Assembly: GCA_045542715.1 (NCBI GenBank)
Contig: JAZQLN010000013.1
Span: 54,363-118,362, forward strand
DNA from: Acutalibacteraceae bacterium
Lineage (GTDB): Bacteria > Bacillota > Clostridia > Oscillospirales > Acutalibacteraceae
Direction of reading: 5' to 3'
DNA: 64,000 nt
Made by a program: the position numbers and the translations under genes. Each line of letters opens with the position of its first letter. Position 1 is the first letter of the stretch. The notes below the pieces were generated by a model. The model saw only the letters and a list, made by a program, of their open reading frames with translations, was not told the origin of the DNA and made no database searches. Positions 2,160 to 42,184 of the stretch are shown piece after piece.

Positions 2160-2174
2160 AGGAGGATTTGAACA

Positions 2175-17094: not shown

Positions 17095-17854
17095 TTTCTT
17101 TTATTCCTTTCTCTTCAAGTTTCTTTGATTTTGCATATTCAACAATTTTTTCAACCGCTGTCCAGATACCGTTTACAAACAGTACGGAAATGCCCGAAGC
17201 AAACAGCAACAGCATTATCGGAACAAGGAAGCCTGCCGATAGCGGATCATATACATTTCTGCCCACAATGGTGAAGGAAATCAGCTTCGGCAGGAACCCG
17301 ATAACGGAAAAAAGAATGAATTTTCCGTAACCGAAATCAAGCGAGCCGTAGATTCCCGAAATCCCGTTGATCGGCATGCACGGAATCAGCCTCAGAGCAA
17401 TAAGAACAAGAGAGTTGACCTTACCGTCCTGTTCGATGAGCCGTTTTATTATTTCTGCTTTCGAAATCATCTTCCATGCATTGCCTGCACCGAAACGTCT
17501 GCCCCAAAAATATCTTATTGTCAGGAGAACAACAAATCCTGCTATATTTACGGGAATTGCAAAATAAATCGGAAGAACAATGCCCGTCAGAAAACACACA
17601 GTAGATGTTGCATATATCGGAAAAACGCTTTTCACGGCAAACAAAAGCATCATTGCACCTATAAATATCCATGTGCGGTCAATATGAAGAATAAAATCTT
17701 CAAGCTGGGCAAGCTTTTGCTTTGACTGAGCATACCACCACCATAGGCTGTCATACTGCAGCGAAACCAAAAGAACCGCAACCGCTATTGAAAGAGCAAT
17801 AAGAATCAGTCCGCCGAAAAGCAGATATTTTTTTCGTTTCTGCTTTGTTTTCAA
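17087..17854 (-). CDS. VTT/TVP38 (DedA superfamily) membrane protein
   Basis: Polytopic; RYFWGR and LRLIPCMP (DedA-type R..P..P motif). Confidence 0.75.
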   Translation of the reverse strand: MKTKQKRKKYLLFGGLILIALSIAVAVLLVSLQYDSLWWWYAQSKQKLAQLEDFILHIDRTWIFIGAMMLLFAVKSVFPIYATSTVCFLTGIVLPIYFAIPVNIAGFVVLLTIRYFWGRRFGAGNAWKMISKAEIIKRLIEQDGKVNSLVLIALRLIPCMPINGISGIYGSLDFGYGKFILFSVIGFLPKLISFTIVGRNVYDPLSAGFLVPIMLLLFASGISVLFVNGIWTAVEKIVEYAKSKKLEEKGIKEND

Positions 17855-18007: not shown

Positions 18008-18955
18008 GTGAAAATAGTTGTTCTTGACGGATACACAACAAACCCCGGCGACCTCTCATGGGATTGGCTCAAAGAATGCGGTGAATGCACCGTTCACGAC
18101 CGCACTCCCGCAGAGCTTATCGCAGAACGTACAGAGGATTGTGAAATCGTTATTACCAACAAAACTCCCCTTCGCAGAGAGCTTCTTGAGACTCTGCCGA
18201 AGCTCAGATATATCGGTCTGCTCAGCACAGGCTACAATATCGTTGACTGGGAATACTGCAAAGAAAAAGGCATTCCCGTGTGCAATATCCCGTCTTACAG
18301 CACATCTGCCGTTGCACAGCTTGTTTTTGCTCTTATTCTTGAACACACAAATTCGGTTGCAGTCCACAGCAACTCCGTGCATTCGGGCGAATGGGCACGA
18401 AGCAAGGATTTCTGTTATTGGGAAACTCCTCTCACAGAGCTTGACGGCAAAACCATGGGCATCATCGGTTTCGGAAAAATCGGTAAAGCCGTTGCAAAAA
18501 TTGCATCCGCATTCGGAATGAAAGTTATCGCTTCAACCAATCATCCCTCACCGTATGAAAACGTTGAATTCTGTGATAAGGATGAACTGCTTGCAAAAAG
18601 CGATTTCGTTTCTCTTCACTGTCCCCTCACTCCTCTGACCGAAGGAATGGTAAACGCAGAGTTTCTTTCAAAAATGAAGCACTCCGCATTTCTTATCAAT
18701 ACATCAAGAGGTCAGGTTGTTGACGAAAACTCTCTTGCCGATGCACTGAAAAACGGTATCATCGCAGGTGCGGGTCTTGATGTCATGACCGTTGAACCTC
18801 CGGAAGCGGACAATCCGCTTTTCAGCCTTTCGAACTGCCATATAACCCCTCATATCGCATGGGCAGGCTTTGAAACAAGAGAAAGACTGATGAGGATTGC
18901 AAAAGAAAACGTTCTTGCTTTTCTTGACGGCAACCCCAAAAATATTGTTTATTAA
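18008..18955 (+). CDS. D-2-hydroxyacid dehydrogenase (glycerate dehydrogenase-like)
   Basis: STGYN, GIIGFGKIG, SLHCPL, INTSRG, GLDV, ITPHIAW. Confidence 0.9.
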   Translation: MKIVVLDGYTTNPGDLSWDWLKECGECTVHDRTPAELIAERTEDCEIVITNKTPLRRELLETLPKLRYIGLLSTGYNIVDWEYCKEKGIPVCNIPSYSTSAVAQLVFALILEHTNSVAVHSNSVHSGEWARSKDFCYWETPLTELDGKTMGIIGFGKIGKAVAKIASAFGMKVIASTNHPSPYENVEFCDKDELLAKSDFVSLHCPLTPLTEGMVNAEFLSKMKHSAFLINTSRGQVVDENSLADALKNGIIAGAGLDVMTVEPPEADNPLFSLSNCHITPHIAWAGFETRERLMRIAKENVLAFLDGNPKNIVY

Positions 18956-18969
18956 GAAGGTCGTTTAAT

Positions 18970-19947
18970 TTGATTGTTTCCCGGACACCCGTAAGAATGT
19001 CATTTTTCGGCGGAGGCACGGATTTCCCCGAATTCTTCAATGAATATTCAGGCTCGGTTATCTCCACCACGTTCGATAAATACTGCTATGTAAACGTACG
19101 TCACCTGCCCGAGCTTTTTGAATACAAATCATATCTTGCCTATGCACAGATTGAAAAAGTCAACTCTGTCGATGAGATAAAGCATCCTGCAATACGTAAC
19201 GCAATGGAGTGGCTGAAGCTTGAACGCATCGCAATGAATTACGACGCAGATCTGCCTGCAAAAACAGGGCTCGGCACAAGCAGTGCATTTTCCGTGGGCC
19301 TCCTCAACGCATTATATACCATGCAGGGCATCACAAAAACAAAGCGTGAGCTTGCGGATGACGCAATCCATCTTGAAAGAGTTCTCTGCGATGAAGACGG
19401 CGGTATTCAGGATCAGATTGCCGCATCTTTCGGCGGATTTAACCGCATTGATTTTACCCGTGACGGATATACTGTCAGACCCGTTGATTTTTCAGAAAAA
19501 AGAAAAAACGCACTCAACGACAATCTTATGCTTTTCTTCACGGGTCTTTCAAGATACTCGTTCCAGATTCAGAAAACAACCAAAATGATGCTCGGCAAAC
19601 GAACGGCAGAGCTGCTGAAAATCCGTGACATGGTTGACGCTGCCGAAAAAATACTTACCGACGGCAACCGTTCGCTTGATGATTTCGGTATGCTTCTGAA
19701 TGAAACATGGCAGCTCAAAAAAAGCATAAGCAATGAAATTTCAACCAACATAATCGATTCGGTTTACGATAAAGCCATGGGTGCAGGTGCACTCGGCGGA
19801 AAGCTTCTCGGTGCAGGCGGAGGAGGATGCCTTCTGTTTTATGTTCCGGAAGAAAAACAGGATAATGTCAGAAACGTTCTTTCGGATATGCACGAAGTTA
19901 AATTCCGTTTTGAAAACGAAGGAACAAAAATCATCTGTAACTATTAA
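18970..19947 (+). CDS. hddA: GHMP sugar kinase, D-glycero-alpha-D-manno-heptose-7-phosphate 1-kinase (HddA) type
   Basis: TPVRMSFFGGGTD, GLGTSSAF, GGIQDQ, GKLLGAGGGG; context of HddC-GmhB. Confidence 0.75.
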   Translation: MIVSRTPVRMSFFGGGTDFPEFFNEYSGSVISTTFDKYCYVNVRHLPELFEYKSYLAYAQIEKVNSVDEIKHPAIRNAMEWLKLERIAMNYDADLPAKTGLGTSSAFSVGLLNALYTMQGITKTKRELADDAIHLERVLCDEDGGIQDQIAASFGGFNRIDFTRDGYTVRPVDFSEKRKNALNDNLMLFFTGLSRYSFQIQKTTKMMLGKRTAELLKIRDMVDAAEKILTDGNRSLDDFGMLLNETWQLKKSISNEISTNIIDSVYDKAMGAGALGGKLLGAGGGGCLLFYVPEEKQDNVRNVLSDMHEVKFRFENEGTKIICNY

Positions 19948-20052: not shown

Positions 20053-20418
20053 ATGATAAAAATTCTCACTCCCGATTTCGTTTTCGAGGACGAAAGAGGC
20101 ACTCTTGTTCAGCTTGTTCACGAGGGCTATAATCAGATAAATGTTGTAACCTCAAAGGCAGGTGTCACAAGAGGAAACCACTGCCACAAACTTAACCGTG
20201 AGGGTTTTTATGTTGTTGAAGGCTCATTCACCGTTGATGTGCATAAAGGGAACGAAAAAGCTTCCCATACCTTCAAAAAGGGTGATATGTTTATCATCGA
20301 GCCTGAAGTCATGCACTCATTTGTTTATCACGAGGATTCAACCCTTATAGGTTTTTATGACAAAGGCGTTGAGCTTCCCGACGGCACAAAAGACATTATT
20401 CCGGAGGTTACGGACTGA
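20053..20418 (+). CDS. Cupin, NDP-keto-sugar isomerase/epimerase-like (FdtA/QdtA/RmlC-like)
   Basis: FEDERGTL, RGNHCH, distal E and H; overlaps the next start. Confidence 0.7.
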   Translation: MIKILTPDFVFEDERGTLVQLVHEGYNQINVVTSKAGVTRGNHCHKLNREGFYVVEGSFTVDVHKGNEKASHTFKKGDMFIIEPEVMHSFVYHEDSTLIGFYDKGVELPDGTKDIIPEVTD

Positions 20419-21671
20419 TGGAAGCAATCGTTCTCGCAGGCGGATTCGGCACAAGGCTGCGCCCCTGCATCGAAAATCTGCCGAAACCTCTTGCACCCGT
20501 CTGCGGCAGACCTTTCATCTCATATCTTCTTGATTATCTTTATGCAAACGGTGTTCACCGTGCGATAATCTCAACAGGATATATGGCTGATGAAATAGTT
20601 AAATCCGTAGGCAAAACCCACAGAGGTATGGTTGTTGATTACAGCCATGAAGAAACCCCTCTCGGCACGGGCGGAGGAATCAAAAAGGCTCTGTCACTCT
20701 GCAAAGATGATATTGCGGTTGTCATAAACGGCGACACCTTCTTTGATGTTGACCTTTTTGAAATGGAAGAATTTCACCGCAATTCAGGTTGTGCAATAAC
20801 TCTCGCTGCAAAGGAAATCCCCGATGTTTACCGTTCGGGATGCATCAAAACAGAAAACGGCAGACTTACGGGTTTCACGGAAAAAGGAACTTCCGGTGCC
20901 GGAAAAATCAACGGCGGGATATATTTCATCAATAAATATTCTCTTGACAATATAACCGAAGAAAAGTTTTCTTTTGAGAAAAATATTCTGGAAAGCGGAA
21001 AATATGATATCGGTGTTTTTGAAAGCAACGGATATTTCATTGATATAGGCATACCCGAAGCATATAATCTTGCACAGACCGACTGTGATAAGCTTGTTTC
21101 AAGAAGAATAAGAAAAGCGGTTTTTCTTGACCGTGACGGCACAATCAACAAAGATACCGTTCATCTTTACCGCAAAGAAGAATTTGAATTTCTCCCCGAT
21201 GCCGGCAAGGCAATTGCCGATATAAAAAAACTCGGTTATCTTGCAATTGTCATCACAAATCAGGCAGGAATCGCAAAGGGACTTTATTCGTCTGATGATG
21301 CGGATACACTCCATAAACATATCGATTCTCAGCTTGCGGAAAATCATTCCGTTATCGCTGACGGATATTATTACTGCCCTCATCATCCCGATGCGGTAAT
21401 TGAAAAATACAGGGTTGACTGTTCATGCAGAAAGCCTCAGCCAGGTCTTATCCTTAAGGCAGTCGATGATTTCCGTGAAAGAGGAATTGAAATTGACCTC
21501 AGCAGTTCATTCATGGCAGGCAACAGAAATTCAGATACCCTCGCAGGCATGAATGCAGGGCTGACAAACAATATTCTCATCGGCTCTGACGAGACATTTA
21601 ATCCCGAAACGGCTTCGGCTCACTATGAAAGTCTTTATGACTTTTCTCAATATATAAAGCAGGTGTTATAG
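20418..21671 (+). CDS. Fused heptose-1-phosphate guanylyltransferase (HddC-like) and heptose-1,7-bisphosphate phosphatase (GmhB)
   Basis: N-terminal LAGGFGTRLR nucleotidyltransferase with FIDIG. C-terminal HAD FLDRDGTIN, ITNQAGI, Zn site CPHHP..CSCRKP. Confidence 0.85.
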   Translation: MEAIVLAGGFGTRLRPCIENLPKPLAPVCGRPFISYLLDYLYANGVHRAIISTGYMADEIVKSVGKTHRGMVVDYSHEETPLGTGGGIKKALSLCKDDIAVVINGDTFFDVDLFEMEEFHRNSGCAITLAAKEIPDVYRSGCIKTENGRLTGFTEKGTSGAGKINGGIYFINKYSLDNITEEKFSFEKNILESGKYDIGVFESNGYFIDIGIPEAYNLAQTDCDKLVSRRIRKAVFLDRDGTINKDTVHLYRKEEFEFLPDAGKAIADIKKLGYLAIVITNQAGIAKGLYSSDDADTLHKHIDSQLAENHSVIADGYYYCPHHPDAVIEKYRVDCSCRKPQPGLILKAVDDFRERGIEIDLSSSFMAGNRNSDTLAGMNAGLTNNILIGSDETFNPETASAHYESLYDFSQYIKQVL

Positions 21672-21672
21672 T

Positions 21673-23589
21673 TTGAAAAATGTTTATTTCGTTCAGGTGG
21701 GTTTTGCATTTGACAAATCCGTCTATCTGCCCTATGCAACGGGAACAATCGTTGCATACTGCAAAAGCTTACCTGAAATAACGGCTGATTATGCGTTCCC
21801 GGAAATCATTTTCCGCAGGGACAATATCGATAATATCGTAAACGGTATGGATAATCCGTATATCGCCGCATTTTCAACCTATGTATGGAATGTTGAATTC
21901 AACAAAGCTCTTGCAAAAGCCGTCAAAGAAAAATATCCCGATTGTAAAATAGTTTTCGGCGGCCACAGCGTTTCGGACCGCATGGAATTTCTTGACGAAG
22001 ACTATATCGATATTCTCACTCTCGGCGAGGGTGAAGAAGTTACCGCCAACCTGCTTTTAACTCTAAAAAATTCAGGCAGCCTCAGCGAATGCCGAGGAAT
22101 TGCATTCAGGGACAATAAAGGAAACAAGGTTCTCACAGAGCCTAACTGCCCCGAAACCGTTGAACACTATCCCTCCCCCTATCTTACGGGTGTTTTCGAT
22201 TCCATAATCGAAAAAAATCCCGATATGATGTTTGATACAATCATAGAAACAAACCGCGGATGCCCATATAACTGTGCATACTGTGACTGGAGCAACCATA
22301 AAAAGCTCCGACTTTTCCCCATTGATAAAGTCAAGGGCGAACTCAAATGGCTTTCCGACCATAATATCGAATATTGCTTCTGTGCCGACTCAAACTTCGG
22401 AATGTTTGAACGTGACACCGAAATTGCCGAATATATAGTGGAACTCAACACAAAAACGGGATTCCCCAAGGTGTTCCGCCCCTGCTATGAAAAAAACAGT
22501 GCAGACAGGGTTTTCAGAATTTCGAAAACACTCAACTCCAGAGGTCTCGATAAAGGTGCAACAATGGCATATCAGACCCTCTGCGACGAAGCACTGAAAA
22601 ACATCAACCGAAAAAATCTGACAATGGAGCATTTTTCGGACCTGATGGCAAACTATACAAAGGCAAATATACCGACATATTCTGAGCTCATTCTCGGTCT
22701 CCCCGGAGAAACCGCAGAAAGCTTCTGTCAGGGACTCTGCAAGCTTCTGCGTGCGGGTCAGCATAATTCAATCAGCGTTTATTACTGCGAATTATTGCCC
22801 AATGCGCCGATGTGCAAACCCGAATATATGGAAAAATTCAAAATCGAACCGATGAAGGTTCAGTTTAATCATATTCATTCCGCAAGCGGCAAAAAAGATA
22901 TGATTCCCGAGTATTCGTATCTTGTGCGTTCAACAAGCACGATGCCCCGCGATGCATGGGTTTACGCAAACCTTTTCTCAATTTGTCTCCAGTGTTTCCA
23001 CAGTCTCGGACTTCTGAGATTTTTTGCAATCCACGCATATCACGCAATGAATATCGATTACTATGATTTCTATAAAGGTCTGCTCGATTTCTGCCTTGAA
23101 GATGACGGTCTTGTGGGTAATCTTTTCAGAGAAATCAAAAGAAAACTTGACGGCTCGCTTGAAGGCGAATGGAATCACAGCAATCCCGTTTTCGGAAATG
23201 TCACATGGTTTTTCGAGGAAGGTCTTTTCCTTGAAATGCTTTATAACTTTGATGAATTCAAAAAAATCATCGATAAATTTGTGAAACCTCTCGGATTCAA
23301 TGAAAAAGTCTACTCCGAGCTTCTGAAATTCCAGCTCAACGCAATCAAGCACCCCTTTGAAGACGGAAAAGAATTTGAATGCGGTTTTGACTTCCTTTCT
23401 TACTTCAAAAACATGGGTTCAAACGAAAAATCAACCCTTGAAGAAAGAAAAACAAGCTACATTTTCAAAGCAAAAACACATTATGAGGACTGGCCTCGCT
23501 TCGCAAAGGAAATCGTCTGGTATGGCAGGCGTAAAGGTGCTACACTTTACACAAATGACACTAACCTGATAGAAGTCAGATTATTGTAA
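21673..23589 (+). CDS. Cobalamin-dependent radical SAM enzyme, paralog 1
   Basis: N-terminal B12-binding Rossmann domain (LPY..G, YVWN, VFGGH, GEGE), ETNRGCPYNCAYC, DSNFG, ELILGLPGET. Confidence 0.9.
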   Translation: MKNVYFVQVGFAFDKSVYLPYATGTIVAYCKSLPEITADYAFPEIIFRRDNIDNIVNGMDNPYIAAFSTYVWNVEFNKALAKAVKEKYPDCKIVFGGHSVSDRMEFLDEDYIDILTLGEGEEVTANLLLTLKNSGSLSECRGIAFRDNKGNKVLTEPNCPETVEHYPSPYLTGVFDSIIEKNPDMMFDTIIETNRGCPYNCAYCDWSNHKKLRLFPIDKVKGELKWLSDHNIEYCFCADSNFGMFERDTEIAEYIVELNTKTGFPKVFRPCYEKNSADRVFRISKTLNSRGLDKGATMAYQTLCDEALKNINRKNLTMEHFSDLMANYTKANIPTYSELILGLPGETAESFCQGLCKLLRAGQHNSISVYYCELLPNAPMCKPEYMEKFKIEPMKVQFNHIHSASGKKDMIPEYSYLVRSTSTMPRDAWVYANLFSICLQCFHSLGLLRFFAIHAYHAMNIDYYDFYKGLLDFCLEDDGLVGNLFREIKRKLDGSLEGEWNHSNPVFGNVTWFFEEGLFLEMLYNFDEFKKIIDKFVKPLGFNEKVYSELLKFQLNAIKHPFEDGKEFECGFDFLSYFKNMGSNEKSTLEERKTSYIFKAKTHYEDWPRFAKEIVWYGRRKGATLYTNDTNLIEVRLL

Positions 23590-23603
23590 GTCCTAATAAT
23601 ATC

Positions 23604-23633
23604 AAAAGGAGCCGCATTTATGCGGCTCCTTTT
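23604..23633. terminator. Bidirectional terminator between convergent rSAM1 and rSAM2
   Basis: AAAAGGAGCCGCA-ttta-TGCGGCTCCTTTT, perfect 13-bp stem. Confidence 0.9.
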
Positions 23634-23658
23634 TCCTTGCAAGTAAAGCTATATCACT

Positions 23659-25593
23659 TTACACAGTTTCAATTTTATCTTTGTATGAACGGCTGCCCAT
23701 TTTGCCGTACCATACAACCTTTTTGCCGAATTCTTCCCAACCCGAGGCAGGATCGCTGTCCGTAAACTCAAATCTGAACCTTCCTTTTACGGGAGGCACG
23801 TATTCGTTGACATAAATCTTCTTGAAATAGTTGTTAAAATCAATTTCAGCCTCACAAGATGACGATTTTTCATCGGGTTTTCTGAGCACCGCCCTCTGAT
23901 ATCCGTAAAGCTGTGAAAGAATGCTTTCATCTTCAATAACAGATGAAAGATACGGCATCATTTCTCCATAGAATACATCAAGATTTCCGCAGAGATTGAG
24001 GAAGATGTATTCGTAATTCTCCCACACAAGATTGCCTGCAAAAGGCACGGTAAGTCTCGGGTTTTCGCCGTTTGCAAGGCTCGCAAAGTAATTCTTGACC
24101 GTTCCGAATACACCGAGCGTAAACGGAGCATTACCGTTTTCAATATATTCAATAAGTCCCTCATAAAAGCTTCTGTAGCTCTTATCAAGCTCATAAAATG
24201 CGTAGATTGCAAAGCATCTGAGAAGTCCGCATCCGTGCATCGCCTGAGTAAAACCGCCGAATGCCGCACTCTTCTGCCACATATCGCAGGGCATGCTGTC
24301 AGTTTCCGTTATGATATTGGTTTTTTCGGGGATATAATAGGCATCCGCTGCACAGTGATATCTCACTATCTCGGAATTTGAGGTTTTTATTCCGTGTTTT
24401 TCCATATATTCCGTCTGCCCGAGAATTGAGTTCGGCAGTACGATACAGTTATAAACCTCAAAAATAAAGTGCTGACCTATTTCAAAAAGCTTGCATATTC
24501 CGTCTGCAAAGCTGTCATAGGTTTCGCCGGGCAGACCGAGAATCAATTCGGAATAAACCTGTAAGTTTTCTTCGTGGTATACACCGAAATCCTTACGAAA
24601 ATGCTCAAGAGACATATTCTTTCTGCCGATGTTTTCGAGCACAACGGGCGAAAGGCTCTGGAGCGATATTGTGGCACCTGCTCTGTCAATCCCCTTGCGG
24701 TTGAAGCGTCTTACGATTTCAAGCACCCTTTCACGGTTGCTTTTTGAATAGTTTATCCTCACTCTTTCGGGATAGCCGTATTTTTCCTTGGCATTGACAA
24801 AAGCATCCGCAATCAGCAAATCATCGGGGCTTATGCCGAAATTCGCATCCGCACCCCAGACAAATCTGATTTTGTTTCTGCCCATCCATTCAATTTCGGC
24901 AAAAACCTTATCAAGCGGAAAAAATCTTGTTTTTTCTTTAAGCAGACCCCAATCACAGTATGCACATCTGTTGGGGCATCCCCTGCTTGTTTCAATGATG
25001 GTGTTGAATTCCATATCGGGATATTTTTCAAAAAATCCGTCAAACCAACCGTCAAGATACGGCGATGCATAATCGTTATCGCACAAAGCTTTCACTTCGC
25101 TCATAACACATTTACTGCCGTCTCTGTAGGCAATATTCGGCACAGACGAAACATCACCGCCGAGGTTTTCAAGGAGACTGCCGAAGGTTATTTCTCCCTC
25201 GCCGAAGCAGAGATAATCAACCTGCGGATTGTTTTCAAGGAACGAAGTGTTATGAGGAATATTGTGGCCGCCGAAAACGGTTATGCAATCGGGATAAGCC
25301 TTCTTGATTTCCGATGCAAGAACAAGATTATATTCCGTATTCCAGCAGTAGTTTGAAAATCCGACCACGGCGGGATTTTCCATTTCCGCAACAACCTGCT
25401 CAATGCTTTTTCTGATGAATATGAAATCCCTGAATTCATAAAGCGAAGCAACCCGGCTGTTACGCCAGGCATTTGCAACTATCACACCCGCCGTATACGG
25501 CAGATAAACCACTTTTGAATCCTTGCCCGATGAAACATCCACCTGGACAAAATAAACATTGGCTTTTGCGGACAAAAAATCACTTACTTTCAT
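23659..25593 (-). CDS. Cobalamin-dependent radical SAM enzyme, paralog 2 (true start may be TTG 25575)
   Basis: VYLPYTAG, NYCWN, VFGGH, GEGE, ETSRGCPNRCAYC, DANFG, ELILGLPGET. Confidence 0.9.
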   Translation of the reverse strand: MKVSDFLSAKANVYFVQVDVSSGKDSKVVYLPYTAGVIVANAWRNSRVASLYEFRDFIFIRKSIEQVVAEMENPAVVGFSNYCWNTEYNLVLASEIKKAYPDCITVFGGHNIPHNTSFLENNPQVDYLCFGEGEITFGSLLENLGGDVSSVPNIAYRDGSKCVMSEVKALCDNDYASPYLDGWFDGFFEKYPDMEFNTIIETSRGCPNRCAYCDWGLLKEKTRFFPLDKVFAEIEWMGRNKIRFVWGADANFGISPDDLLIADAFVNAKEKYGYPERVRINYSKSNRERVLEIVRRFNRKGIDRAGATISLQSLSPVVLENIGRKNMSLEHFRKDFGVYHEENLQVYSELILGLPGETYDSFADGICKLFEIGQHFIFEVYNCIVLPNSILGQTEYMEKHGIKTSNSEIVRYHCAADAYYIPEKTNIITETDSMPCDMWQKSAAFGGFTQAMHGCGLLRCFAIYAFYELDKSYRSFYEGLIEYIENGNAPFTLGVFGTVKNYFASLANGENPRLTVPFAGNLVWENYEYIFLNLCGNLDVFYGEMMPYLSSVIEDESILSQLYGYQRAVLRKPDEKSSSCEAEIDFNNYFKKIYVNEYVPPVKGRFRFEFTDSDPASGWEEFGKKVVWYGKMGSRSYKDKIETV

Positions 25594-25600
25594 TAATTTT

Positions 25601-25626
25601 AACGGGTGTACATCAGCACACCCGTT
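25601..25626 (-). terminator. Hairpin downstream of the smaller membrane protein gene, immediately upstream of rSAM2
   Basis: AACGGGTGT-8nt-ACACCCGTT; arms shared with the hairpin at 29506-29534. Confidence 0.6.
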
Positions 25627-25631
25627 TATTT

Positions 25632-26483
25632 TTATTTGCAGAGCTTCTTTGTTACAGCTTCATCGATTTCATTGAATGTTTTGTTTGCGTAAGTGTTGCA
25701 GTTTGCGGCAACAACAAGTGTAAGTGCAACGGAAACAACAATCATATATGCATTTCTTGAAATCATCATGCTCTGAGGAATTGCAGCAGCGGCAAGACAT
25801 ACATATCCGAGTGCTTCGGCTTTGCCGTCTTTTGATCTGAACGCCTTGAACGCAACATACAACGTGAAAACTGCCATAAGAATTGTTACGATTGATGAGA
25901 ACCAATGAGATTTGAAAGAATTGAATGTGAACGAATCCTTGAATACTTTAAAGCAATATACACCCGCACCGAAAAGAACAGCTTCCGAAACCGCAAAAAT
26001 GATTTTATCAACAACGGATGATTCTCTGAGCTTATGCCAGTTGATAATGAATCCTGCCGCAAAAAGTACGGGAATTGCGGATATGGATGTATACTGAAAA
26101 AATGCGTGAGAAAGAATTGCAAGTGCCGCCGCAACGGGAAGATATCTGATTTCTTTCACAAACATCATTCCGCCTGCATAAACGGCAAGCATTGCAAACA
26201 CTTCAACGTTGATTTCAAGATAATCGTACACTCCGAGAACAAGTCCGCACGAAGAAATAACGCCGAAAAGATGCCGAACAGTCATGAATTTGCCGTCAGA
26301 CGGAATATTCATTGAAAGCACAAATGAAAATGCAAATGCACCTGCAATCAAAGCAAGGTAAACATCAGGTTGAGTCATGCCTCTCAACCCTGAACCGTGA
26401 AGCCCTTTGAGAATGATAAGAACAAAGCAAAGGATAAACACCGTTATACGGTTTTTTGATTGTGAAACTGTTTTTTCTGCCAT
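25632..26483 (-). CDS. Polytopic membrane protein, hypothetical (distant paralog of 29539-30774)
   Basis: Multiple hydrophobic segments; ATG 26483 after RBS GAGGTG; directly downstream of rSAM3. Confidence 0.75.
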   Translation of the reverse strand: MAEKTVSQSKNRITVFILCFVLIILKGLHGSGLRGMTQPDVYLALIAGAFAFSFVLSMNIPSDGKFMTVRHLFGVISSCGLVLGVYDYLEINVEVFAMLAVYAGGMMFVKEIRYLPVAAALAILSHAFFQYTSISAIPVLFAAGFIINWHKLRESSVVDKIIFAVSEAVLFGAGVYCFKVFKDSFTFNSFKSHWFSSIVTILMAVFTLYVAFKAFRSKDGKAEALGYVCLAAAAIPQSMMISRNAYMIVVSVALTLVVAANCNTYANKTFNEIDEAVTKKLCK

Positions 26484-26496
26484 TTCCGACACCTCG

Positions 26497-28425
26497 TTAA
26501 TCAATATATTTTATTTCGGGATTATAACAATCGGAGATATACAGTGCGGCAGATTTGTTTCTGCCGTACCAGACAACCGAGCAGGCGTAATCATAAAGAT
26601 TTCCGCACAGCTTGTCATTGTTGACTGTTATAACTGTTTTTTTCTTTTCGGGAGGAGCATATCTGCCCTCATATATGCCTTTGAAGCAACTGTAAAAATC
26701 ATAATCGGAAACTATTTCCGGATTTTCAGAACACGGTCTTTTCAGAACCTTTCTCTGAAAATCAAAAATCGGCTTCAGATTTTCTTTCCCGAATTTATCG
26801 GCAAAGAAGGCTTCAAGCTCATCGTATATTTCATCGGCAATTTCCAGCGATTTGAGAAAACAGATTTCATCAAACTGCCAACAAATATCGCCCAGCCCGT
26901 CACACTGTACCGCCCATGAATTTTTGCGGTGTATCATCCCTTCCGCAAAGTGCTTTACAATTGAATAAACCTTATTGCACGCTTTGTTTTCGGGATTTGC
27001 GGAAAGCCCGGCAATCATGGAATAAATATCATAATAGCTTATTCCGAATTCATTACGCAGATACATAGCCGCAAGTCTGAAAAGGCCGATATTATGAAAC
27101 GCCTGAATAATACAGGAAAAAATCACACAGTAAACCCAATCCTCACGGCTGAGAGTGTTTGTTTCGATAACCGCATTGTTGTATTCGGTTATTTCCTGCT
27201 TTGTGTCAGCTTTGCAATGAGCCTGTGCAAACGGAGTTTTAACTGTTTTTATGCCGTATTTTTCAACAGATTCTTTTGAACCCATTTCCGAATTCGGGAG
27301 CAGGTCGCAGGTATAAACCTGAATTGCCTTGTGCTGACCGTATTCGAGCAATTCGCAAAGTCCGGCGGTGAAGCTTTCTTTTGTTTCTCCCGGAAGACCG
27401 AGAATAAGCTCCGACGATGTTGAAATTCCGAGACGGCTGTATTCACTCATGAGTTCACGGAAATGCTCAAGAGGAATATTTTTTCTGCCGATATTTTCAA
27501 GCACTTCGGGCGACATACTCTGGAACGAAAGCGTCTGTGCCTTGTCAAGACCGTACTCATTGAATCTCATGCAGATTTTTTTTACGAATTCCGTTCTGTT
27601 TTTGGTGAAACACACTCTGAAATTCTGCGGATATCCCGTTTTCTTTTTAAGAGAAATTATGTATTCCGCAATCTCTTCATCACGGTCGAAAAGTCCGAAA
27701 TTCCCGTCTGCGCAGTAAACATATTCGATTTTATGCTCTGCAATCCAGTCCATTTCAGCTTTTACCCTCTCCATCGGGAAAAGCCTCACCTTGCTGCCGA
27801 GAGTTCCCCAGTCGCAGAATGAGCAGTGAAACGGACATCCTCTGTTTGTTTCGAGAACAGCGGAAAACCTTGTTTCGCCGTCTGCGATACCGTCAAAAAT
27901 ACCGCTGAGATACGGCGACGGATACTCGCTCATACAAAATCCTTCTTCATGGGTTTTCACAAGGGTTTCGCCGTTTCTGAATGCAATGTTTGCAACACCG
28001 TCAAGGCTTCTGTCATTCAAGAAAGCTAGCACAACCTGCCTGAACGCTTCCTCCCCTTCACGGTAGATTACAACATCAACTTCAGGGCATTCCTCAAAGG
28101 TTTCAAAATCACGGAGAACATTATGTCCTCCGAAAACAATTTTCACCTCGGGATATGCTTTTTTTATCTCTTTTGCAAGAGCTTTATTATATTCATAGTT
28201 CCACACGGAACAGGAAAACGCAACCATAAACGGATTTTCTGTTTTATTGACAGCTTTTTCAATCGGTTCATGAGTATAAATAAATCCGCCGATTCTGCAT
28301 GAGCTCTTTATTGTTTCATCCGCAAAAGCATATGCGGCAATACAGCCTGATGCATAGGGAATGTAGACTGATTTTATATCGTTGCCGTAAACATTGTTTG
28401 CCTGAACAAAATATATGTTTTTCAA
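26497..28425 (-). CDS. Cobalamin-dependent radical SAM enzyme, paralog 3
   Basis: VYIPYASG, SVWN, VFGGH, REGE, ETNRGCPFHCSFC, DGNFG, ELILGLPGET. Confidence 0.9.
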   Translation of the reverse strand: MKNIYFVQANNVYGNDIKSVYIPYASGCIAAYAFADETIKSSCRIGGFIYTHEPIEKAVNKTENPFMVAFSCSVWNYEYNKALAKEIKKAYPEVKIVFGGHNVLRDFETFEECPEVDVVIYREGEEAFRQVVLAFLNDRSLDGVANIAFRNGETLVKTHEEGFCMSEYPSPYLSGIFDGIADGETRFSAVLETNRGCPFHCSFCDWGTLGSKVRLFPMERVKAEMDWIAEHKIEYVYCADGNFGLFDRDEEIAEYIISLKKKTGYPQNFRVCFTKNRTEFVKKICMRFNEYGLDKAQTLSFQSMSPEVLENIGRKNIPLEHFRELMSEYSRLGISTSSELILGLPGETKESFTAGLCELLEYGQHKAIQVYTCDLLPNSEMGSKESVEKYGIKTVKTPFAQAHCKADTKQEITEYNNAVIETNTLSREDWVYCVIFSCIIQAFHNIGLFRLAAMYLRNEFGISYYDIYSMIAGLSANPENKACNKVYSIVKHFAEGMIHRKNSWAVQCDGLGDICWQFDEICFLKSLEIADEIYDELEAFFADKFGKENLKPIFDFQRKVLKRPCSENPEIVSDYDFYSCFKGIYEGRYAPPEKKKTVITVNNDKLCGNLYDYACSVVWYGRNKSAALYISDCYNPEIKYID

Positions 28426-28454
28426 CGCATCATCCCCTTTGCATAGTTATTTTT

Positions 28455-28483
28455 ATTATAATACTATATATAAAGAATGTCAA
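28455..28483 (-). promoter_or_regulatory. Perfect-consensus sigmaA promoter for rSAM3-membrane protein(-rSAM2)
   Basis: Minus-strand TTGACA-17bp-TATAAT. Confidence 0.8.
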
Positions 28484-28508
28484 TAAAACAAAATATTTGT
28501 GTTGTAAA

Positions 28509-28537
28509 TTGACTATTGTATCAAATTGTGATAAAGT
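28509..28537 (+). promoter_or_regulatory. Divergent sigmaA promoter for the SDR gene
   Basis: TTGACT-17bp-TAAAGT with TGn extension. Confidence 0.6.
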
Positions 28538-28567
28538 ATTCTTATAATGTAAATGGAAGTGACTTTA

Positions 28568-29503
28568 ATGCTTGATATTCTCGTAACGGGCGGAGCCGGC
28601 TATATAGGCTCAGTTCTTGTTCCTCTTCTTTTGTCCAAAGGTTGCAGAGTGACTGTTCTTGACAATCTTTTTTATAATCAGAATTCATTGCTTGAATGCT
28701 GTGCAAATCCGAATTTCAGAATGATTAACGCAGATGCAAGAAATGAAAACGCAGTCAGAGAAGCTATGAAGGGTAAAGATTATATTATACCTCTTGCAGC
28801 ACTCGCAGGCTTCCCTATCTGCGACAAAGAGGCTTGTTCCGCATATTCTATAAACCTTGACGCAATCAAAATGATTCTTCGTCTGCGTGATAAAGGACAA
28901 CGAATTATTTTCCCGTGCACAAACAGCGGTTACGGTCTCGGCGAAGGTGAAAAATTCTGCACCGAAAGCTCTCCGATCAGACCTATTTCAATCTACGGCA
29001 AAAGCAAGGTTGAAGCAGAAGCAGCCGTGCTCAGCGAAAGCGGTACAACTGCATTCAGATTTGCAACCCTTTTCGGTGCATCTCCCAGAATGAGAACGGA
29101 CCTTCTTGTCAACGATTTCGTTTACAGAGCTGTTTTTGACAGAACTCTTGTTGTATTTGAAGGCAGCTTCAAGAGAAACTATCTCCATGTAAGGGATGCC
29201 GCAAATGCGTTCTGGTTTGCAATTGAGAATTTTGAAAAAATGGAAGGCGGCACTCACAACTGCGGTCTTTCCGATTCAAACCTTTCAAAAATCGAGCTCT
29301 GCGAAAAAATCAAACTTATTCTGCCGAAGTTCACTTATATTGAAGCTCCCGTCGGAGAAGACCCTGACAAGAGAAACTATATCGTTTCCAACGAAAAGCT
29401 TGAATCACTCGGATGGAAGCCGTTTTATTCGCTTGATGACGGCATCAGAGAGTTAACAAACGCATACGAAATCATCAAAAACAATAAATATTCCAACATA
29501 TAA
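28568..29503 (+). CDS. Extended SDR, GDP-D-glycero-D-manno-heptose 4-dehydrogenase (Cj1427/WcaG-like)
   Basis: TGGAGYIGS, IIPLAAL, TNSGYG, YGKSK, SPRMR.DLLVNDF, RNY.HVRD, GEDPDKRNY.VSN. Colinear with C. jejuni Cj1427 as I recall it. Confidence 0.75.
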   Translation: MLDILVTGGAGYIGSVLVPLLLSKGCRVTVLDNLFYNQNSLLECCANPNFRMINADARNENAVREAMKGKDYIIPLAALAGFPICDKEACSAYSINLDAIKMILRLRDKGQRIIFPCTNSGYGLGEGEKFCTESSPIRPISIYGKSKVEAEAAVLSESGTTAFRFATLFGASPRMRTDLLVNDFVYRAVFDRTLVVFEGSFKRNYLHVRDAANAFWFAIENFEKMEGGTHNCGLSDSNLSKIELCEKIKLILPKFTYIEAPVGEDPDKRNYIVSNEKLESLGWKPFYSLDDGIRELTNAYEIIKNNKYSNI

Positions 29504-29505
29504 AA

Positions 29506-29534
29506 ATCGGGTGTACCTTGGGGGTACACCCGAT
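29506..29534. terminator. Bidirectional terminator between the SDR gene and the larger membrane protein gene
   Basis: ATCGGGTGTACC-ttggg-GGTACACCCGAT, perfect 12-bp stem. Confidence 0.85.
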
Positions 29535-29538
29535 AATT

Positions 29539-30774
29539 TTATACTGCCCAGCCTTGCTGGAAACATGATGCATATATAAGGAAATAAACCGCAAGCAGAA
29601 TTTCTTTGCCCTTGAAGAATGACTTGAGCTGTTCCGTTGTTTTTTCGAAAGCCGGGTCTTTTTTGAAGAACATAACAAAAGCAAAGATAAACTGATTAAG
29701 AACACCAGCCTGAGCAAGTCTGCTGTAGTCCGTTGAAATAAGCCAGCTGATGGGAATAAAAAGCAATCCGAGAATAAAGCAAAGGAACACGAATTTCTGA
29801 GGCTTTGTTTCCGAATTCTTTATACAAAGAACCCAAACAGGTACGAATCCTGCCAAAACAACAAGCAGAATCATGCAAAGCGATAAGAGACCGTCATAGT
29901 TAGTCTCGTGATATTCGCCTATCTGACCTGTTGTAATCATAAATACTGTTTTGATAACTTCAAACGGAGACATGTCTCTGACTTCGTGGCCGAGGTCAGC
30001 ATCAATCGAGTTGCCGTAGAAGAACATATCAAACGGGCGGATTTCATCATACTCGAATTTTATTCCGCTTTTTTGCTCCATAATCTTCCACATTTCATCA
30101 AATGTGACCTTCATAAAATCTCTTGATTCAAAAGCGAAGAAATATGTTGCACCGACTACCGCAACCGCCGTAATGAGGAATATAACAAAATTTGATTTGC
30201 TCTGCTTTTCTCTGACTGCGAAATAGAAACAAATTCCGATAACCGCAACAAAATAAGTGAGCGTAAACGGATAATAAACAAATACGCCGGCAAGGGCAAA
30301 CACGGGAGTAAACCAGCGGAGATATTTGTTTGTCGCACATACAACGGCAAGCAATGCACAGATAAACATATGAATATCAAGCAAACCGAAATATCTTGAA
30401 AATCCGTACATTGTCAATGTTCCGAAAACGAAGAAAAGAACAAAAACATAAAGAACATTTCTTTTTTCTTTTTCCGTGCATCTGATAATTCTGCCCAGAA
30501 GCAGCGATACCGCAAGCAACGTGAGCACAAGCACGGTAATCATAAATCCCTTCAGCCACGAAGCTGTCGGATTATCCGTTAAAAGATTGACGAACGAACC
30601 GACCAGCATTCTTGAATTGAAGCCCATGGAATAATCAAGAAGATAGTAGCTGTTGAAGTCGTTTTCCATGTTTATAATCATTCCGCGGTTAAAGAATGCC
30701 TGGATACCGAGAATAATAAAGATGCCAAGCTCATAGCCAAAGTATAATATTATTTTTGAAACCTTGGTTTTCAA
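29539..30774 (-). CDS. Polytopic membrane protein, possibly GT-C-like transferase
   Basis: Many TM segments; acidic residues in loops (ENDFNSYYLLDY..GF.SR, LLD, STDYSR); one large extracytoplasmic loop; TTG start. Confidence 0.7.
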   Translation of the reverse strand: MKTKVSKIILYFGYELGIFIILGIQAFFNRGMIINMENDFNSYYLLDYSMGFNSRMLVGSFVNLLTDNPTASWLKGFMITVLVLTLLAVSLLLGRIIRCTEKEKRNVLYVFVLFFVFGTLTMYGFSRYFGLLDIHMFICALLAVVCATNKYLRWFTPVFALAGVFVYYPFTLTYFVAVIGICFYFAVREKQSKSNFVIFLITAVAVVGATYFFAFESRDFMKVTFDEMWKIMEQKSGIKFEYDEIRPFDMFFYGNSIDADLGHEVRDMSPFEVIKTVFMITTGQIGEYHETNYDGLLSLCMILLVVLAGFVPVWVLCIKNSETKPQKFVFLCFILGLLFIPISWLISTDYSRLAQAGVLNQFIFAFVMFFKKDPAFEKTTEQLKSFFKGKEILLAVYFLIYASCFQQGWAV

Positions 30775-35637: not shown

Positions 35638-35721
35638 TCAATAAACAGGTTGAAAAAAATTGATTTTTATGTTAAGGTGTATGGTGTAAATCATACACCT
35701 TTTCTTTTAGGAGAGATAACA

Positions 35722-40395: not shown

Positions 40396-40418
40396 AATAT
40401 CACCCGAAACAAAAAAAT

Positions 40419-40442
40419 TCCCGAAAGCCTGAGCCTTCGGGA
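40419..40442 (-). terminator. Hairpin terminator after the lipase gene
   Basis: TCCCGAA...TTCGGGA followed by a T run on the minus strand. Confidence 0.6.
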
Positions 40443-40472
40443 TTAGTTTTTTATATTATTGTTGTTTTATAC

Positions 40473-42023: not shown

Positions 42024-42184
42024 GTAAATCATCCTTTCGGAATTTTATACGGTATATTTTAACATACGTTATAGAAATAAACAATATATTTTAAAATATT
42101 TTTGCTAAATTTTACTTATATATTGAAAAAATACACACGACTGTGTTACAATATCCAAAATATAAAATTGTCAGGGTGAATGAG

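Follow-up and report, generated by a model that had tools for sequence, protein, structure and literature searches.

The 64,000-nucleotide stretch of DNA analyzed here (the window) carries three intact genes for cobalamin (Cbl)-dependent radical SAM enzymes, R1, R2 and R3, whose products are best read as functional members of a large, uncharacterised clade of such enzymes in gut Clostridia. Their gene neighbors look like a GDP-heptose pathway, and we would give an even chance to the explanation that the three anciently diverged enzymes methylate carbons of a heptose, regiospecifically or in sequence, and that this sugar is destined for a strain-variable surface glycan. The genes and predicted elements of the locus are listed below.

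15814-17094, minus strand: galactokinase-like GHMP kinase (Pfam), divergent from the HADH operon and possibly associated
17087-17854, minus strand: VTT/DedA membrane protein (Pfam), divergent from the HADH operon and possibly associated
18008-18955, plus strand: HADH, a D-isomer 2-hydroxyacid dehydrogenase, first gene of the plus-strand operon (Pfam 2-Hacid_dh_C, E=2.7e-60)
18970-19947, plus strand: GHMP sugar kinase, HddA/WcbL-like, heptose-7-phosphate 1-kinase type (PDB and NCBIfam)
20053-20418, plus strand: small cupin of 121 aa, probable keto-sugar epimerase/isomerase (Pfam Cupin_2, FdtA)
20418-21671, plus strand: fusion of an HddC-like sugar-1-phosphate nucleotidyltransferase and a GmhB-like HAD phosphatase (PDB, TIGR00213)
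21673-23589, plus strand: R1, Cbl-dependent radical SAM enzyme, orthogroup OG0, final gene of the plus-strand operon
23604-23633, no strand: GC-rich hairpin with a 13-bp stem, a probable terminator in both directions for R1 and R2, which converge here
23659-25593, minus strand: R2, Cbl-dependent radical SAM enzyme, orthogroup OG6
25632-26483, minus strand: M1, polytopic membrane protein of 283 aa, with its ATG at 26483 and a good RBS
26497-28425, minus strand: R3, Cbl-dependent radical SAM enzyme, orthogroup OG5, opening the R3-M1-R2 unit
28455-28483, minus strand: putative promoter 30 nt before the start of R3, a consensus match only (perfect sigma-70 consensus, TTGACA-17-TATAAT)
28553-29503, plus strand: SDR sugar-nucleotide oxidoreductase (PDB 6vo6, 53% identity, gapless over 308 aa, E=3.5e-106)
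29506-29534, no strand: hairpin in the gap between SDR and M2, which converge
29539-30774, minus strand: M2, polytopic membrane protein of 411 aa (AF2 pLDDT 80, pTM 0.84)

The promoter and hairpins are predictions, and no RNA evidence for the locus was found. Comparisons were made with 80 loci anchored on R1 orthologs (51–90% identity), or 83 when loci L001–L003 were added; as the 80 loci were chosen by similarity to R1, the apparent universality of OG0 among them is inflated. All related loci come from MAGs of uncultured ruminant-gut bacteria in the Acutalibacteraceae or Oscillospiraceae.

Integrity of the three radical SAM genes

The open reading frames of R1, R2 and R3 (638, 644 and 642 aa) lie exactly where the first-pass annotation had placed them. 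Its description of three intact paralogs was borne out: the frames are complete, each gene has an ortholog of 82–91% identity in the syntenic locus L004, and dN/dS values relative to that locus were 0.050, 0.085 and 0.090, respectively. The three genes are thus under purifying selection, and none is a pseudogene. The proteins align colinearly from end to end at 38–40% pairwise identity, with 133 invariant columns, and share one layout, consisting of a B12-binding domain, a radical SAM core with CxxxCxxC and a divergent C-terminal domain. The motif series previously reported for all three (YFVQ, PY..G, WN, FGGH, EGE, SPYL.G.FD, ET.RGCP..C..CDW, D.NFG, RKN, ELILGLPGET, GQH, VY.C..LPN and VWYG) was recovered with a single departure, IPY in R3 where LPY had been listed, and CxxxCxxC, also reported for all three, is present in exactly one copy per enzyme. 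In line with the greatest divergence having been placed toward the C terminus, the last third is the least conserved (26–28% identity, versus 41–44% in the Cbl domain and 45–52% in the radical SAM core). The Pfam Radical_SAM model matches R1, R2 and R3, and the B12-binding model scores over threshold in R2 and R3 and slightly under it in R1 (29.5 vs 32.1 bits).

Relationship to TokK-type enzymes

R3 alone matched TokK (PDB 7kdx) with 34% identity across 571 residues (E=8.1e-89), and a profile built from R1, R2 and R3 did so with E=2.9e-124, so the family match is far above chance. CysS (PDB 9n1b) was matched at E=1e-49 by the single sequence, over its Cbl and radical SAM domains but not its C-terminal domain, and at 1e-67 by the profile. 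The class B assignment and three-domain layout of TokK and ThnK previously proposed for R1, R2 and R3 therefore hold, and on sequence criteria we assign the three to class B Cbl-dependent radical SAM enzymes of the TokK/ThnK/CysS type, with TokK and ThnK as the nearest solved relatives.

As in TokK and ThnK, which are carbapenem C6 sequential methylases, a Cbl Rossmann domain and a radical SAM core are followed by a large C-terminal domain. A sequence check found no DxHxxG motif in R1, R2 or R3, as is also the case in TokK, and the W of their conserved WN motif corresponds to TokK Trp76, which lies beneath the corrin in that enzyme. Both features fit a base-off/His-off cobalamin, as the first-pass annotation had implied. 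The three cluster cysteines and the positions of TokK Trp76 and Trp215 are invariant in 238 of 238 clade members examined, and R1, R2 and R3 keep the counterpart of Arg280, the carboxylate anchor of TokK, where CysS has a Trp. In contrast, TokK Leu383 and Tyr410, both close to the active site, are replaced by Cys and His in the clade (238 members, one exception per site), so that its chemistry may differ from that of TokK in detail, and the C-terminal ~70 residues of TokK, Tyr652 among them, were unalignable. The top NCBIfam model was that of the KedN5 (kedarcidin) family, NF033712, which scored 206–274 bits (cutoff 700) and matched only over the first ~400 of its 624 positions. KedN5 and CysS, the iterative methylase of cystobactamid, share with R1, R2 and R3 a class B subclade whose methylases build alkyl groups stepwise.

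Sugar-nucleotide genes

The R1 start codon lies 1 nt past the stop codon of the HddC/GmhB fusion. Residues 2–219 of this fusion matched HddC (PDB 6jq8, E=4.5e-40) and residues 233–414 matched GmhB (PDB 3l8e, E=4.2e-37), with a score over the cutoff of the GmhB model TIGR00213 (156.7 vs 149.6 bits). The HddA-like kinase matched heptose phosphate kinases (PDB 4usm/4usk, 3k85 and 4n3o) at E=3.6e-36 to 2e-30. As the NCBIfam models for HddA (135.9 bits, cutoff 600) and HddC both scored below their curated cutoffs, the actual sugar may be an analogue of heptose. In the PDB search the cupin weakly matched the corresponding domain of Cap5F, a keto-sugar epimerase (E=6.5e-5), and HADH, found in 36 of the 83 loci, scored 308 bits, under the cutoff, with the NCBIfam 2-hydroxyacid dehydrogenase model. 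The structure matched by the SDR, PDB 6vo6, is what we take to be Cj1427 of C. jejuni, the GDP-heptose C4-dehydrogenase, a function documented for Cj1427 (PMC10680097).

In the non-overlapping gene set of the 83-locus table, the kinase was found in 64 loci, all of them R1-anchored, the cupin in 62 and the nucleotidyltransferase/phosphatase in 67 (65, 70 and 69, respectively, in the raw best-hit table of 80 loci). In 57 of the 80 loci, OG0 directly adjoins a sugar-nucleotide gene. No GmhA-type heptose isomerase, GT2 or RmlD-like C4 reductase was found within the 64-kb window, so the pathway is incomplete inside it. The galactokinase-like kinase and VTT/DedA genes co-occur only in closely syntenic relatives (33–34 of 80 loci), which makes shared synteny inseparable from a functional link.

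This gene set resembles the capsular heptose pathway of C. jejuni, comprising HddA, GmhB, HddC, Cj1427, cupin epimerases and C4 reductases (PMC10680097, PMC7949155), in the clustering of heptose kinase, phosphatase, guanylyltransferase, 6vo6-like SDR and cupin, to which some related loci, L084 among them, add an RmlD-like reductase. It differs in its cupin, of a minimal type and not RmlC-like, in the fusion of HddC with GmhB and in the lack of GmhA from the window. Moreover, the methyl groups of C. jejuni heptoses are O-linked and come from ordinary methyltransferases, and to our knowledge that pathway has no radical SAM enzymes.

Membrane proteins and glycosyltransferases

The gene for M1, between R2 and R3, was missing from the first-pass annotation. 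Its family occurs in 21 loci, always between R3 and R2 orthologs, and every database homolog is 283 aa long; M1 had no Pfam or NCBIfam match, and its AF2 model (12 helices, pLDDT 82) no significant PDB match. The top Foldseek matches of the M2 model were all GT-C enzymes (PglB, DPY19 and Stt3; prob 0.90–0.99), weak by E-value (0.02–0.1, TMq 0.30–0.42), and M2 is probably a small GT-C-fold glycosyltransferase. The M2 family, often multicopy, occurs in 55 of the 83 loci; within it, G59 and D133 are invariant and D47, G51, G130 and R352 nearly so (at least 90%). Sequence evolution is much faster in M1 and M2 than in neighboring genes, as expected of surface-specificity genes.

A small GT2 was detected in 39 loci, with several transferases of polyprenyl-phosphate sugars (PgfS, Dol-P hexose transferase, AglJ, ArnC) among its best NCBIfam matches, all weak, and one related locus has a GT_STM0557_N (GtrC-type) protein. 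Together with the GT-C-like M2, these recall the three-component Gtr/Pgf/Arn systems of extracytoplasmic glycosylation, which pair a GT2 polyprenyl-P sugar synthase with a GT-C transferase. Unlike those systems, the window has neither a GT2 nor a GtrA-like flippase, and we know of no Gtr- or Pgf-type system with radical SAM enzymes.

Orthogroups and phylogeny

Each locus carries from one to six TokK-like genes drawn from at least ten orthogroups, each of which is represented at most once per locus. In a neighbor-joining (NJ) tree, ten orthogroups form one clade without TokK, and R1, R2 and R3 fall on three separate deep branches within OG0, OG6 and OG5, respectively. This placement indicates ancient paralogs that moved as modules, with no recent duplication, and orthogroups are indeed gained and lost as modules among close relatives. 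Of the two origins to be separated by phylogeny, in-place duplication and separate acquisition, neither fits in its simple form. Locus L084, reached independently by way of an R3 homolog, forms a single same-strand operon with a GT2, five radical SAM genes, an RmlD-like SDR, HddC/GmhB, an HddA-like kinase, a 6vo6-like SDR and a cupin. Loci L002, L003 and L085 have a GT2, M2 and many radical SAM genes and lack any sugar-nucleotide gene at a distance of up to 10 kb, and L086 is an orphan locus.

Discussion

By homology, a [4Fe-4S] cluster and SAM would generate a 5'-deoxyadenosyl radical in each enzyme, which would take a hydrogen atom off an unactivated sp3 carbon; a methyl group would then be delivered by methylcobalamin bound base-off/His-off. 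The most likely substrate is the heptose made by the neighboring genes, for which the HddA-like kinase would produce heptose 1,7-bisphosphate, the GmhB-like phosphatase and HddC-like nucleotidyltransferase GDP-heptose, and the 6vo6-like SDR and cupin would carry out C4 oxidation and epimerisation. Methylation may take place on the nucleotide sugar or on the sugar once on polyprenyl phosphate. We infer that R1, translationally coupled to the sugar-nucleotide genes, would be the core enzyme and R3-M1-R2 an optional add-on module, supplying extra methyls at other carbons or atop the first; the first-pass proposal that each paralog would act on a different carbon or in sequence is plausible. The decorated sugar might then reach a cell-surface polymer through the GT-C-like M2, resulting in strain-specific surface chemistry.

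Precedents for Cbl radical methylation of unactivated sugar carbons are GenK, GenD1/GntE, Fms7 and MoeK5 (PMC12931638). However, these enzymes act in antibiotic pathways on pseudo-oligosaccharide substrates and belong to other subfamilies, and the significant PDB and NCBIfam matches in this analysis included none of them. The substrate of MoeK5 is a lipid-linked sugar. Literature searches turned up no Cbl-dependent radical SAM enzyme that methylates an NDP-heptose or a glycan of the cell surface.

It is unlikely that the enzymes instead methylate a lipid, either the polyprenyl-phosphate carrier or a membrane lipid, with the sugar genes only supplying its head group. Isoprenoid-lipid methylases of this kind exist (HpnP and HpnR; for archaeal lipid methylases, bioRxiv 10.1101/2025.10.20.683597), and a lipid substrate would suit the membrane proteins M1, M2 and VTT/DedA, the surroundings free of sugar-nucleotide genes in L002, L003 and L085, and the CrtI/amine-oxidase-like flavoprotein and Fer2 protein encoded among the radical SAM genes of L001. 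However, the CrtI-like gene is restricted to 4 loci, and the HpnR, HpnJ and ladderane-type models scored ~200 bits below KedN5 and far below the TokK PDB match. The coupling of R1 to HddC/GmhB, the adjacency of OG0 to sugar genes and the union of five radical SAM genes with the whole sugar set in L084 also argue for a sugar substrate.

Quite unlikely, too, is a role in the sugar pathway through other Cbl radical chemistry (epimerisation, rearrangement, ring contraction, or C-C/C-S bond formation), exemplified by OxsB, ThnL and BchE. The similarity to TokK spans all three domains, the two Trp specific to the sequential methylases TokK, ThnK and CysS are invariant here, and the characterised members of the TokK subclade are all methylases. 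Nevertheless, ThnL, from the same cluster as ThnK, is not a methylase, and of the Cys and His at the Leu383 and Tyr410 positions the conserved Cys could be a hydrogen-atom donor, as Cys is in radical SAM epimerases.

The thienamycin-like setting implied by the first-pass annotation, in which R1, R2 and R3 would be tailoring enzymes for a carbapenem-like, RiPP or polyketide secondary metabolite in the manner of ThnK, ThnL and ThnP, was not supported and is very improbable. Three paralogs per locus recall the thienamycin cluster, and the closest matches come from carbapenem (TokK), cystobactamid (CysS) and kedarcidin (KedN5) pathways. However, among ORFs of at least 150 aa in the 64-kb window we found no beta-lactam synthetase, carboxymethylproline synthase, NRPS, PKS, precursor peptide or RiPP maturase, which makes the analogy superficial. 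The flanks are housekeeping genes in conserved synteny, the partners retained across 51–90% identity are sugar-nucleotide genes alongside membrane proteins, the KedN5 match is partial and far under its cutoff, and TokK itself falls outside the ten-orthogroup clade.

That the three copies are redundant or partly decaying duplicates of one activity, as their common layout and catalytic motifs might suggest, is hardly credible for enzymes whose mutual identity barely exceeds that of R3 with TokK, whose substrate-facing C-terminal domains differ most, and which lie on separate deep branches, each with a constrained L004 ortholog. Under the C-methylation reading that we favor, the setting of R1, R2 and R3 points to an undescribed C-methylation route for cell-surface sugars, and not to an antibiotic pathway.

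Three intact cobalamin-dependent radical SAM paralogs

The three full-length paralogous cobalamin (Cbl)-dependent radical SAM (rSAM) enzymes claimed in the first-pass annotation were recovered as long open reading frames (ORFs) with the same coordinates. They are listed here as R1, R2 and R3, together with a membrane protein gene, M1, that the annotation did not mention, a second membrane protein gene, M2, and a candidate promoter.

Features of the R1-R3 locus
21673-23589, + strand: R1, Cbl-dependent rSAM paralog, 638 aa
23659-25593, - strand: R2, Cbl-dependent rSAM paralog, 644 aa
25632-26483, - strand: M1, 283-aa membrane protein between R2 and R3
26497-28425, - strand: R3, Cbl-dependent rSAM paralog, 642 aa
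28455-28483, - strand: candidate promoter, 12/12 sigma-70 consensus (TTGACA-17-TATAAT), immediately upstream of R3
29539-30774, - strand: M2, polytopic membrane protein (AlphaFold pLDDT 80, pTM 0.84)

R1-R3 were colinear end to end in a three-way alignment, at 38-40% identity, and every motif of the colinear series named earlier was found in it. Each protein carries a single, intact CxxxCxxC (at residue 197 in R1, 206 in R2 and 197 in R3). The Pfam Radical_SAM core (PF04055) scored 40-69 bits in the three proteins (cutoff 29.5) and was preceded by the B12-binding domain PF02310, at 49.9 bits in R3, 33.4 in R2 and marginally below threshold in R1 (29.5 vs 32.1); all three could be aligned to the Cbl domain of TokK from residue ~20. 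On these domains, R1-R3 are classified as class B (predicted cobalamin-dependent) radical SAM enzymes. Identity among them was 41-44% in the Cbl domain and 45-52% in the rSAM core vs 26-28% in the C-terminal third, so that the C-terminal part is the most divergent, as had been noticed. The DxHxxG motif was absent from R1, R2 and R3, again as described.

A solved-structure search matched R3 to TokK with E=8.1e-89 (query residues 20-594, 34% identity over 571 aligned residues) and to CysS with E=1e-49, and a profile of the three paralogs matched TokK at E=2.9e-124. Similarity to TokK extended into the large C-terminal domain, with the last ~50 residues, including the VWYG motif, unaligned; both single-sequence and profile alignments ended at TokK residues 608-617, short of Tyr652. 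In TokK, whose cobalamin is four-coordinate and base-off/His-off, Trp76 lies beneath the corrin, Trp215 is an active-site residue after the third Cys, and Arg280 is a ligand of the substrate carboxylate; both Trp are common to TokK, ThnK and CysS and are not found in other characterised Cbl methylases (bioRxiv 10.1101/2021.07.10.451909). The W of the WN motif and that of the CDW motif in R1-R3 correspond to Trp76 and Trp215, respectively. Because of this homology, with both diagnostic Trp kept, the earlier assignment to a TokK/ThnK-type family, including base-off cobalamin, is supported. The fold of R1-R3 was taken from TokK, a homology that we judged sufficient, and methyl transfer from SAM via MeCbl to a substrate carbon would be expected by the same homology.

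The top NCBIfam model for R1-R3 was the KedN5 family of methylcobalamin-dependent C-methyltransferases (NF033712), to which they do not belong, with 241.9, 205.8 and 273.7 bits vs a curated cutoff of 700 and coverage of positions ~11-401 of 624, i.e. the N-terminal two thirds.

A combination of old modules

Related loci were collected from metagenome-assembled genomes (MAGs). Their 252 TokK-like proteins sorted into 10 or more orthogroups, whose members share at least 55% identity, and no orthogroup occurred twice in one locus; R1 belongs to OG0, R2 to OG6 and R3 to OG5. A neighbor-joining tree rooted on CysS, built with no bootstrap and with partial outgroup sequences, placed ten orthogroups in one clade with TokK outside, and R1, R2 and R3 on three separate deep branches. 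Recent tandem duplication of R1-R3 was rejected from the orthogroups and the tree.

The content of related loci varies. Some close relatives have R1 alone plus M1 (L016 type), and others add OG1, OG2, OG3, a GT2 and additional enzymes. TokK-like copies ranged from 1 (20 loci) to 6 per locus, or up to 8 when B12-rSAMs of ~500 aa were counted, and L003, outside the 80 loci described below, has 10 B12-rSAM copies. Orthogroups, tree and differing module content among close relatives together argue that the trio is a combination of old modules. The first-pass annotation had set in-place duplication against separate acquisition; in-place duplication of recent date is discarded, and neither history in its simple form accounts for the trio.

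The R3-M1-R2 module lies in one orientation in the window and in the fully syntenic locus L004, and in the opposite one in L017 and L001, where the whole block R2-M1-R3-SDR (window 23600-29540) is inverted. The 21-31 kb region contains no inverted repeats except the paralogous coding sequences themselves. Since flanking inverted repeats are missing, an invertible switch was rejected, and the opposite orientation looks like an evolutionary inversion.

A residue signature of the clade

The three cluster Cys and the positions of Trp76 and Trp215 were invariant in R1-R3 and in 238/238 members of the clade, a large group of TokK-like enzymes from gut Clostridia. Thirteen clade-invariant positions set these proteins apart from the aligned part of TokK, 11 of them aligned to TokK and two, N-terminal, with no counterpart in the partial TokK sequence used. 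Cys372 and His402 (R1 numbering; codons at about 22786-22788 and 22876-22878, with equivalents in R2 and R3) occupy the positions of TokK Leu383 and Tyr410, both near the TokK active site, and were conserved in 237/238 members. This Cys/His signature may mark chemistry or substrate binding unlike that of TokK. The position of TokK Arg280 is Arg in R1, R2 and R3; by orthogroup, OG0, OG3, OG5, OG6 and OG9 have Arg there, OG1 and OG8 have Gln, OG2 has Lys, OG7 has Asn, and OG4 has a mixture of Arg and Lys, a pattern that fits varied modes of holding a related substrate.

A sugar-nucleotide operon and two membrane proteins

The genes directly flanking R1-R3 are a sugar-nucleotide set. One predicted transcription unit, on the + strand, begins with a D-2-hydroxyacid dehydrogenase (HADH) and continues through a GHMP kinase, a cupin, a fused nucleotidyltransferase and phosphatase (HddC/GmhB) and R1 to a hairpin at 23604-23633. 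A second comprises R3, M1 and R2 and would start from the sigma-70 consensus (28483-28455). SDR, a sugar-nucleotide oxidoreductase gene, and M2 converge upon a hairpin at 29506-29534.

The closest PDB relatives of the GHMP kinase were the heptose phosphate kinases WcbL and HddA (E about 1e-36), with an HddA model score of 135.9 vs the NCBIfam cutoff of 600. The HddC-like nucleotidyltransferase part of the fusion matched PDB 6jq8 (E=4.5e-40), with an HddC score of 175.7 vs a cutoff of 300, and its other part, resembling the heptose-1,7-bisphosphate phosphatase GmhB, matched PDB 3l8e (E=4.2e-37) and passed the GmhB model TIGR00213 (156.7 vs a curated cutoff of 149.6). The cupin (121 aa) shows weak similarity to the domain of Cap5F that acts as a keto-sugar epimerase. 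SDR (28553-29503) is closely similar to PDB 6vo6, at 53% identity without gaps over 308 aa; we take this structure to be Cj1427, the C. jejuni GDP-heptose C4-dehydrogenase that recycles alpha-ketoglutarate. The chemistry of Cj1427 has been described (PMC10680097). No sedoheptulose-7-phosphate isomerase (GmhA) or SIS domain was found among the scanned window ORFs, and the genome may carry GmhA outside this stretch; GT2 and C4 reductase genes were likewise absent from the 64-kb window.

The top Foldseek matches of the structure predicted for M2, from an alignment of database homologs, were all GT-C proteins (PglB, DPY19 and Stt3), at high probability (0.90-0.99) but with weak E-values (0.02-0.1) and a TMq of 0.30-0.42. 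GT-C glycosyltransferases are recognised by their transmembrane fold and by an acidic residue kept in the first external loop; the M2 family has an invariant D133 and a nearly invariant D47 (at least 90%). The assignment of M2 as a putative GT-C glycosyltransferase is weak. M1, modeled with 12 helices, had no Pfam, NCBIfam or meaningful PDB structural match (best, EmbC, prob 0.35), and its position between the R3 and R2 orthologs is kept in L004, L017 and L001. Compared with L004, M1 and M2 evolve faster (dN/dS 0.20 and 0.14), at 63% aa identity vs 81-97% for their neighbors.

The remainder of the window is mostly housekeeping in character, including peptidases, ABC transporters, a pseudouridine synthase, Trk and DNA polymerase I. 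Three tandem Exo_endo_phos (endonuclease/exonuclease/phosphatase family) paralogs of 297, 309 and 252 aa (1266-3862, +) stand after a phosphoglucomutase/phosphomannomutase gene, and a tandem pair of M42 aminopeptidases of 339 and 345 aa (13713-15762, -) remains syntenic with the locus among close relatives. At 15814-17854 (-), genes for a galactokinase-like GHMP kinase and for a VTT/DedA membrane protein are divergent from the heptose operon and co-occur with the locus in closely syntenic genomes only. DedA proteins are known polyprenyl-phosphate flippases, and a functional link of the VTT/DedA protein to the heptose operon is conceivable. Five ORFs of 239-519 aa, at 34378-36615 (+), 39676-42032 (-) and 58316-59548 (-), had no Pfam match at E<=0.001. 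The 64-kb window contained no tRNA genes and no Rfam family above its gathering score, and therefore no cobalamin riboswitch.

Conservation of the gene set in related loci

R3 has >3,000 homologs and, among the matches listed, all came from MAGs of uncultured Clostridia, Oscillospiraceae or Eubacteriales; DNA of the window itself is present in sheep and goat gut metagenomes, but a search for expression gave no usable RNA run. A genome scan yielded 80 loci anchored on R1 orthologs, chosen by similarity to R1 and taken with 10 kb on each side and simple ORF calls, from MAGs assigned to Acutalibacteraceae, Oscillospiraceae or Clostridia and mostly of ruminant origin. Kinase, cupin and HddC/GmhB were present in 64, 62 and 67 loci, respectively, when a non-overlapping gene set was counted in an 83-locus table, and in 65, 70 and 69 of 80 by raw best hits. 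The R1 ortholog directly adjoins a sugar-nucleotide gene in 57/80 loci. The M2 family occurs in 55/83, frequently in several copies, and a small GT2 in 39, whose best, weak matches include the polyprenyl-phosphate sugar transferases PgfS, Dol-P hexose transferase, AglJ and ArnC.

An independent find through an R3 homolog (47% identity, on at least 24 contigs), L084 forms one same-strand operon in the order GT2, five TokK-like rSAMs, RmlD-like reductase, HddC/GmhB, kinase, 6vo6-like SDR and cupin. The link between rSAM and sugar genes is not universal, since three loci (L002, L003 and L085) contain four to ten B12-rSAMs alongside GT2 and M2, with no sugar-nucleotide gene within 10 kb, and another, L086, is an orphan. 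L003 (GCA_964612185.1) groups six B12-rSAMs of ~643 aa and four of ~490 aa with a GT2, two M2-like proteins and a GtrC-type (GT_STM0557_N) protein.

Proposed function

We propose that R1-R3 are cobalamin-dependent radical C-methyltransferases acting on the heptose made by the adjacent genes, with GT-C delivery of the product to a surface polymer, a reading to which we give about an even chance. The substrate would be a GDP-sugar or a polyprenyl-phosphate-linked heptose made by the neighboring genes. R1 would serve as the core enzyme, with R3-M1-R2 as an accessory module, and the GT-C-like proteins would pass the methylated sugar to a cell-surface polymer. While gene content, order and conservation are observed, we infer from them the methyl transfer, the substrate, the methylated positions and the destination.

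Among the alternatives, a lipid as the substrate appears unlikely. Amid the rSAM genes of L001 (3712-6311) are encoded a 515-aa CrtI/amine-oxidase-like flavoprotein and a 351-aa protein with a Fer2 domain; this pair, found in only 4 loci, may point to lipid or redox steps. Cobalamin radical chemistry other than methylation, within the same pathway as proposed here, is also rather improbable. Tailoring of a secondary metabolite, in the thienamycin-like setting that the first-pass annotation had implied, seems very improbable. Membership in the functional family of TokK and ThnK (carbapenam C6 alkylation) would go with carbapenem core genes nearby and a pantetheinylated carbapenam as substrate; no such genes were present among the scanned ORFs of the window, TokK fell outside the clade in the tree, and R1-R3 are not placed in that family. 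A Pfam scan of ORFs of 150 aa or more across the 64 kb found no match to carbapenem, RiPP, NRPS or PKS functions, so that a carbapenem- or RiPP-type cluster was rejected; the partners are sugar-nucleotide genes. Redundancy of R1-R3 is hardly to be expected, and all three are under purifying selection (dN/dS vs L004 of 0.050, 0.085 and 0.090, respectively, with dS about 1, near saturation).

A more extended version of heptose C-methylation, which we put forward tentatively, is combinatorial alkylation of the sugar. OG0, up to five more TokK-like enzymes and up to four B12-rSAMs of ~500 aa per locus would each add carbon-bound methyl groups, or lengthen existing ones, at different positions of a heptose linked to GDP or polyprenyl phosphate, yielding poly-C-methylated or alkyl-branched heptoses, a previously undescribed class of surface sugar. 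Swaps of modules such as R3-M1-R2 would then vary the surface chemistry of ruminant-gut Acutalibacteraceae, and the clade-invariant Cys/His could signal a mechanistic twist absent from TokK.

Significance

An exhaustive profile search returned 2,480 clusters (50% identity) at E<=1e-30, at least 150 of them at >=441 bits, above the 419 bits of TokK on the same profile, and the relatives of R1-R3 thus appear to form a large clade. To our knowledge, nearly all Cbl-rSAM methylases characterized so far belong to antibiotic, cofactor or lipid pathways. The sugar-directed ones in reviews of the field are confined to antibiotic pathways (GenK, GenD1/GntE, Fms7 and MoeK5; PMC12931638), and our literature search found no link between Cbl-rSAMs and heptose or surface glycans. 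The locus therefore combines known enzyme chemistry with an undescribed pathway context and an unusual modular expansion of paralogs, in a clade that, among abundant uncultured gut Clostridia, is firmly tied to a nucleotide-heptose operon and to membrane proteins resembling glycosyltransferases.

If heptose carbons are methylated, radical C-methylation would reach primary cell-envelope glycans, and new sugar structures would be predicted, with effects on recognition by phages and the immune system and on the breakdown of glycans in rumen and hindgut. The clade would also provide enzymology and biocatalysis with a natural set of 10 or more related enzymes, presumably of different regiochemistry, on one scaffold. 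Finally, the surface-glycan diversity of these bacteria would, if the proposal holds, be linked to the supply of vitamin B12.
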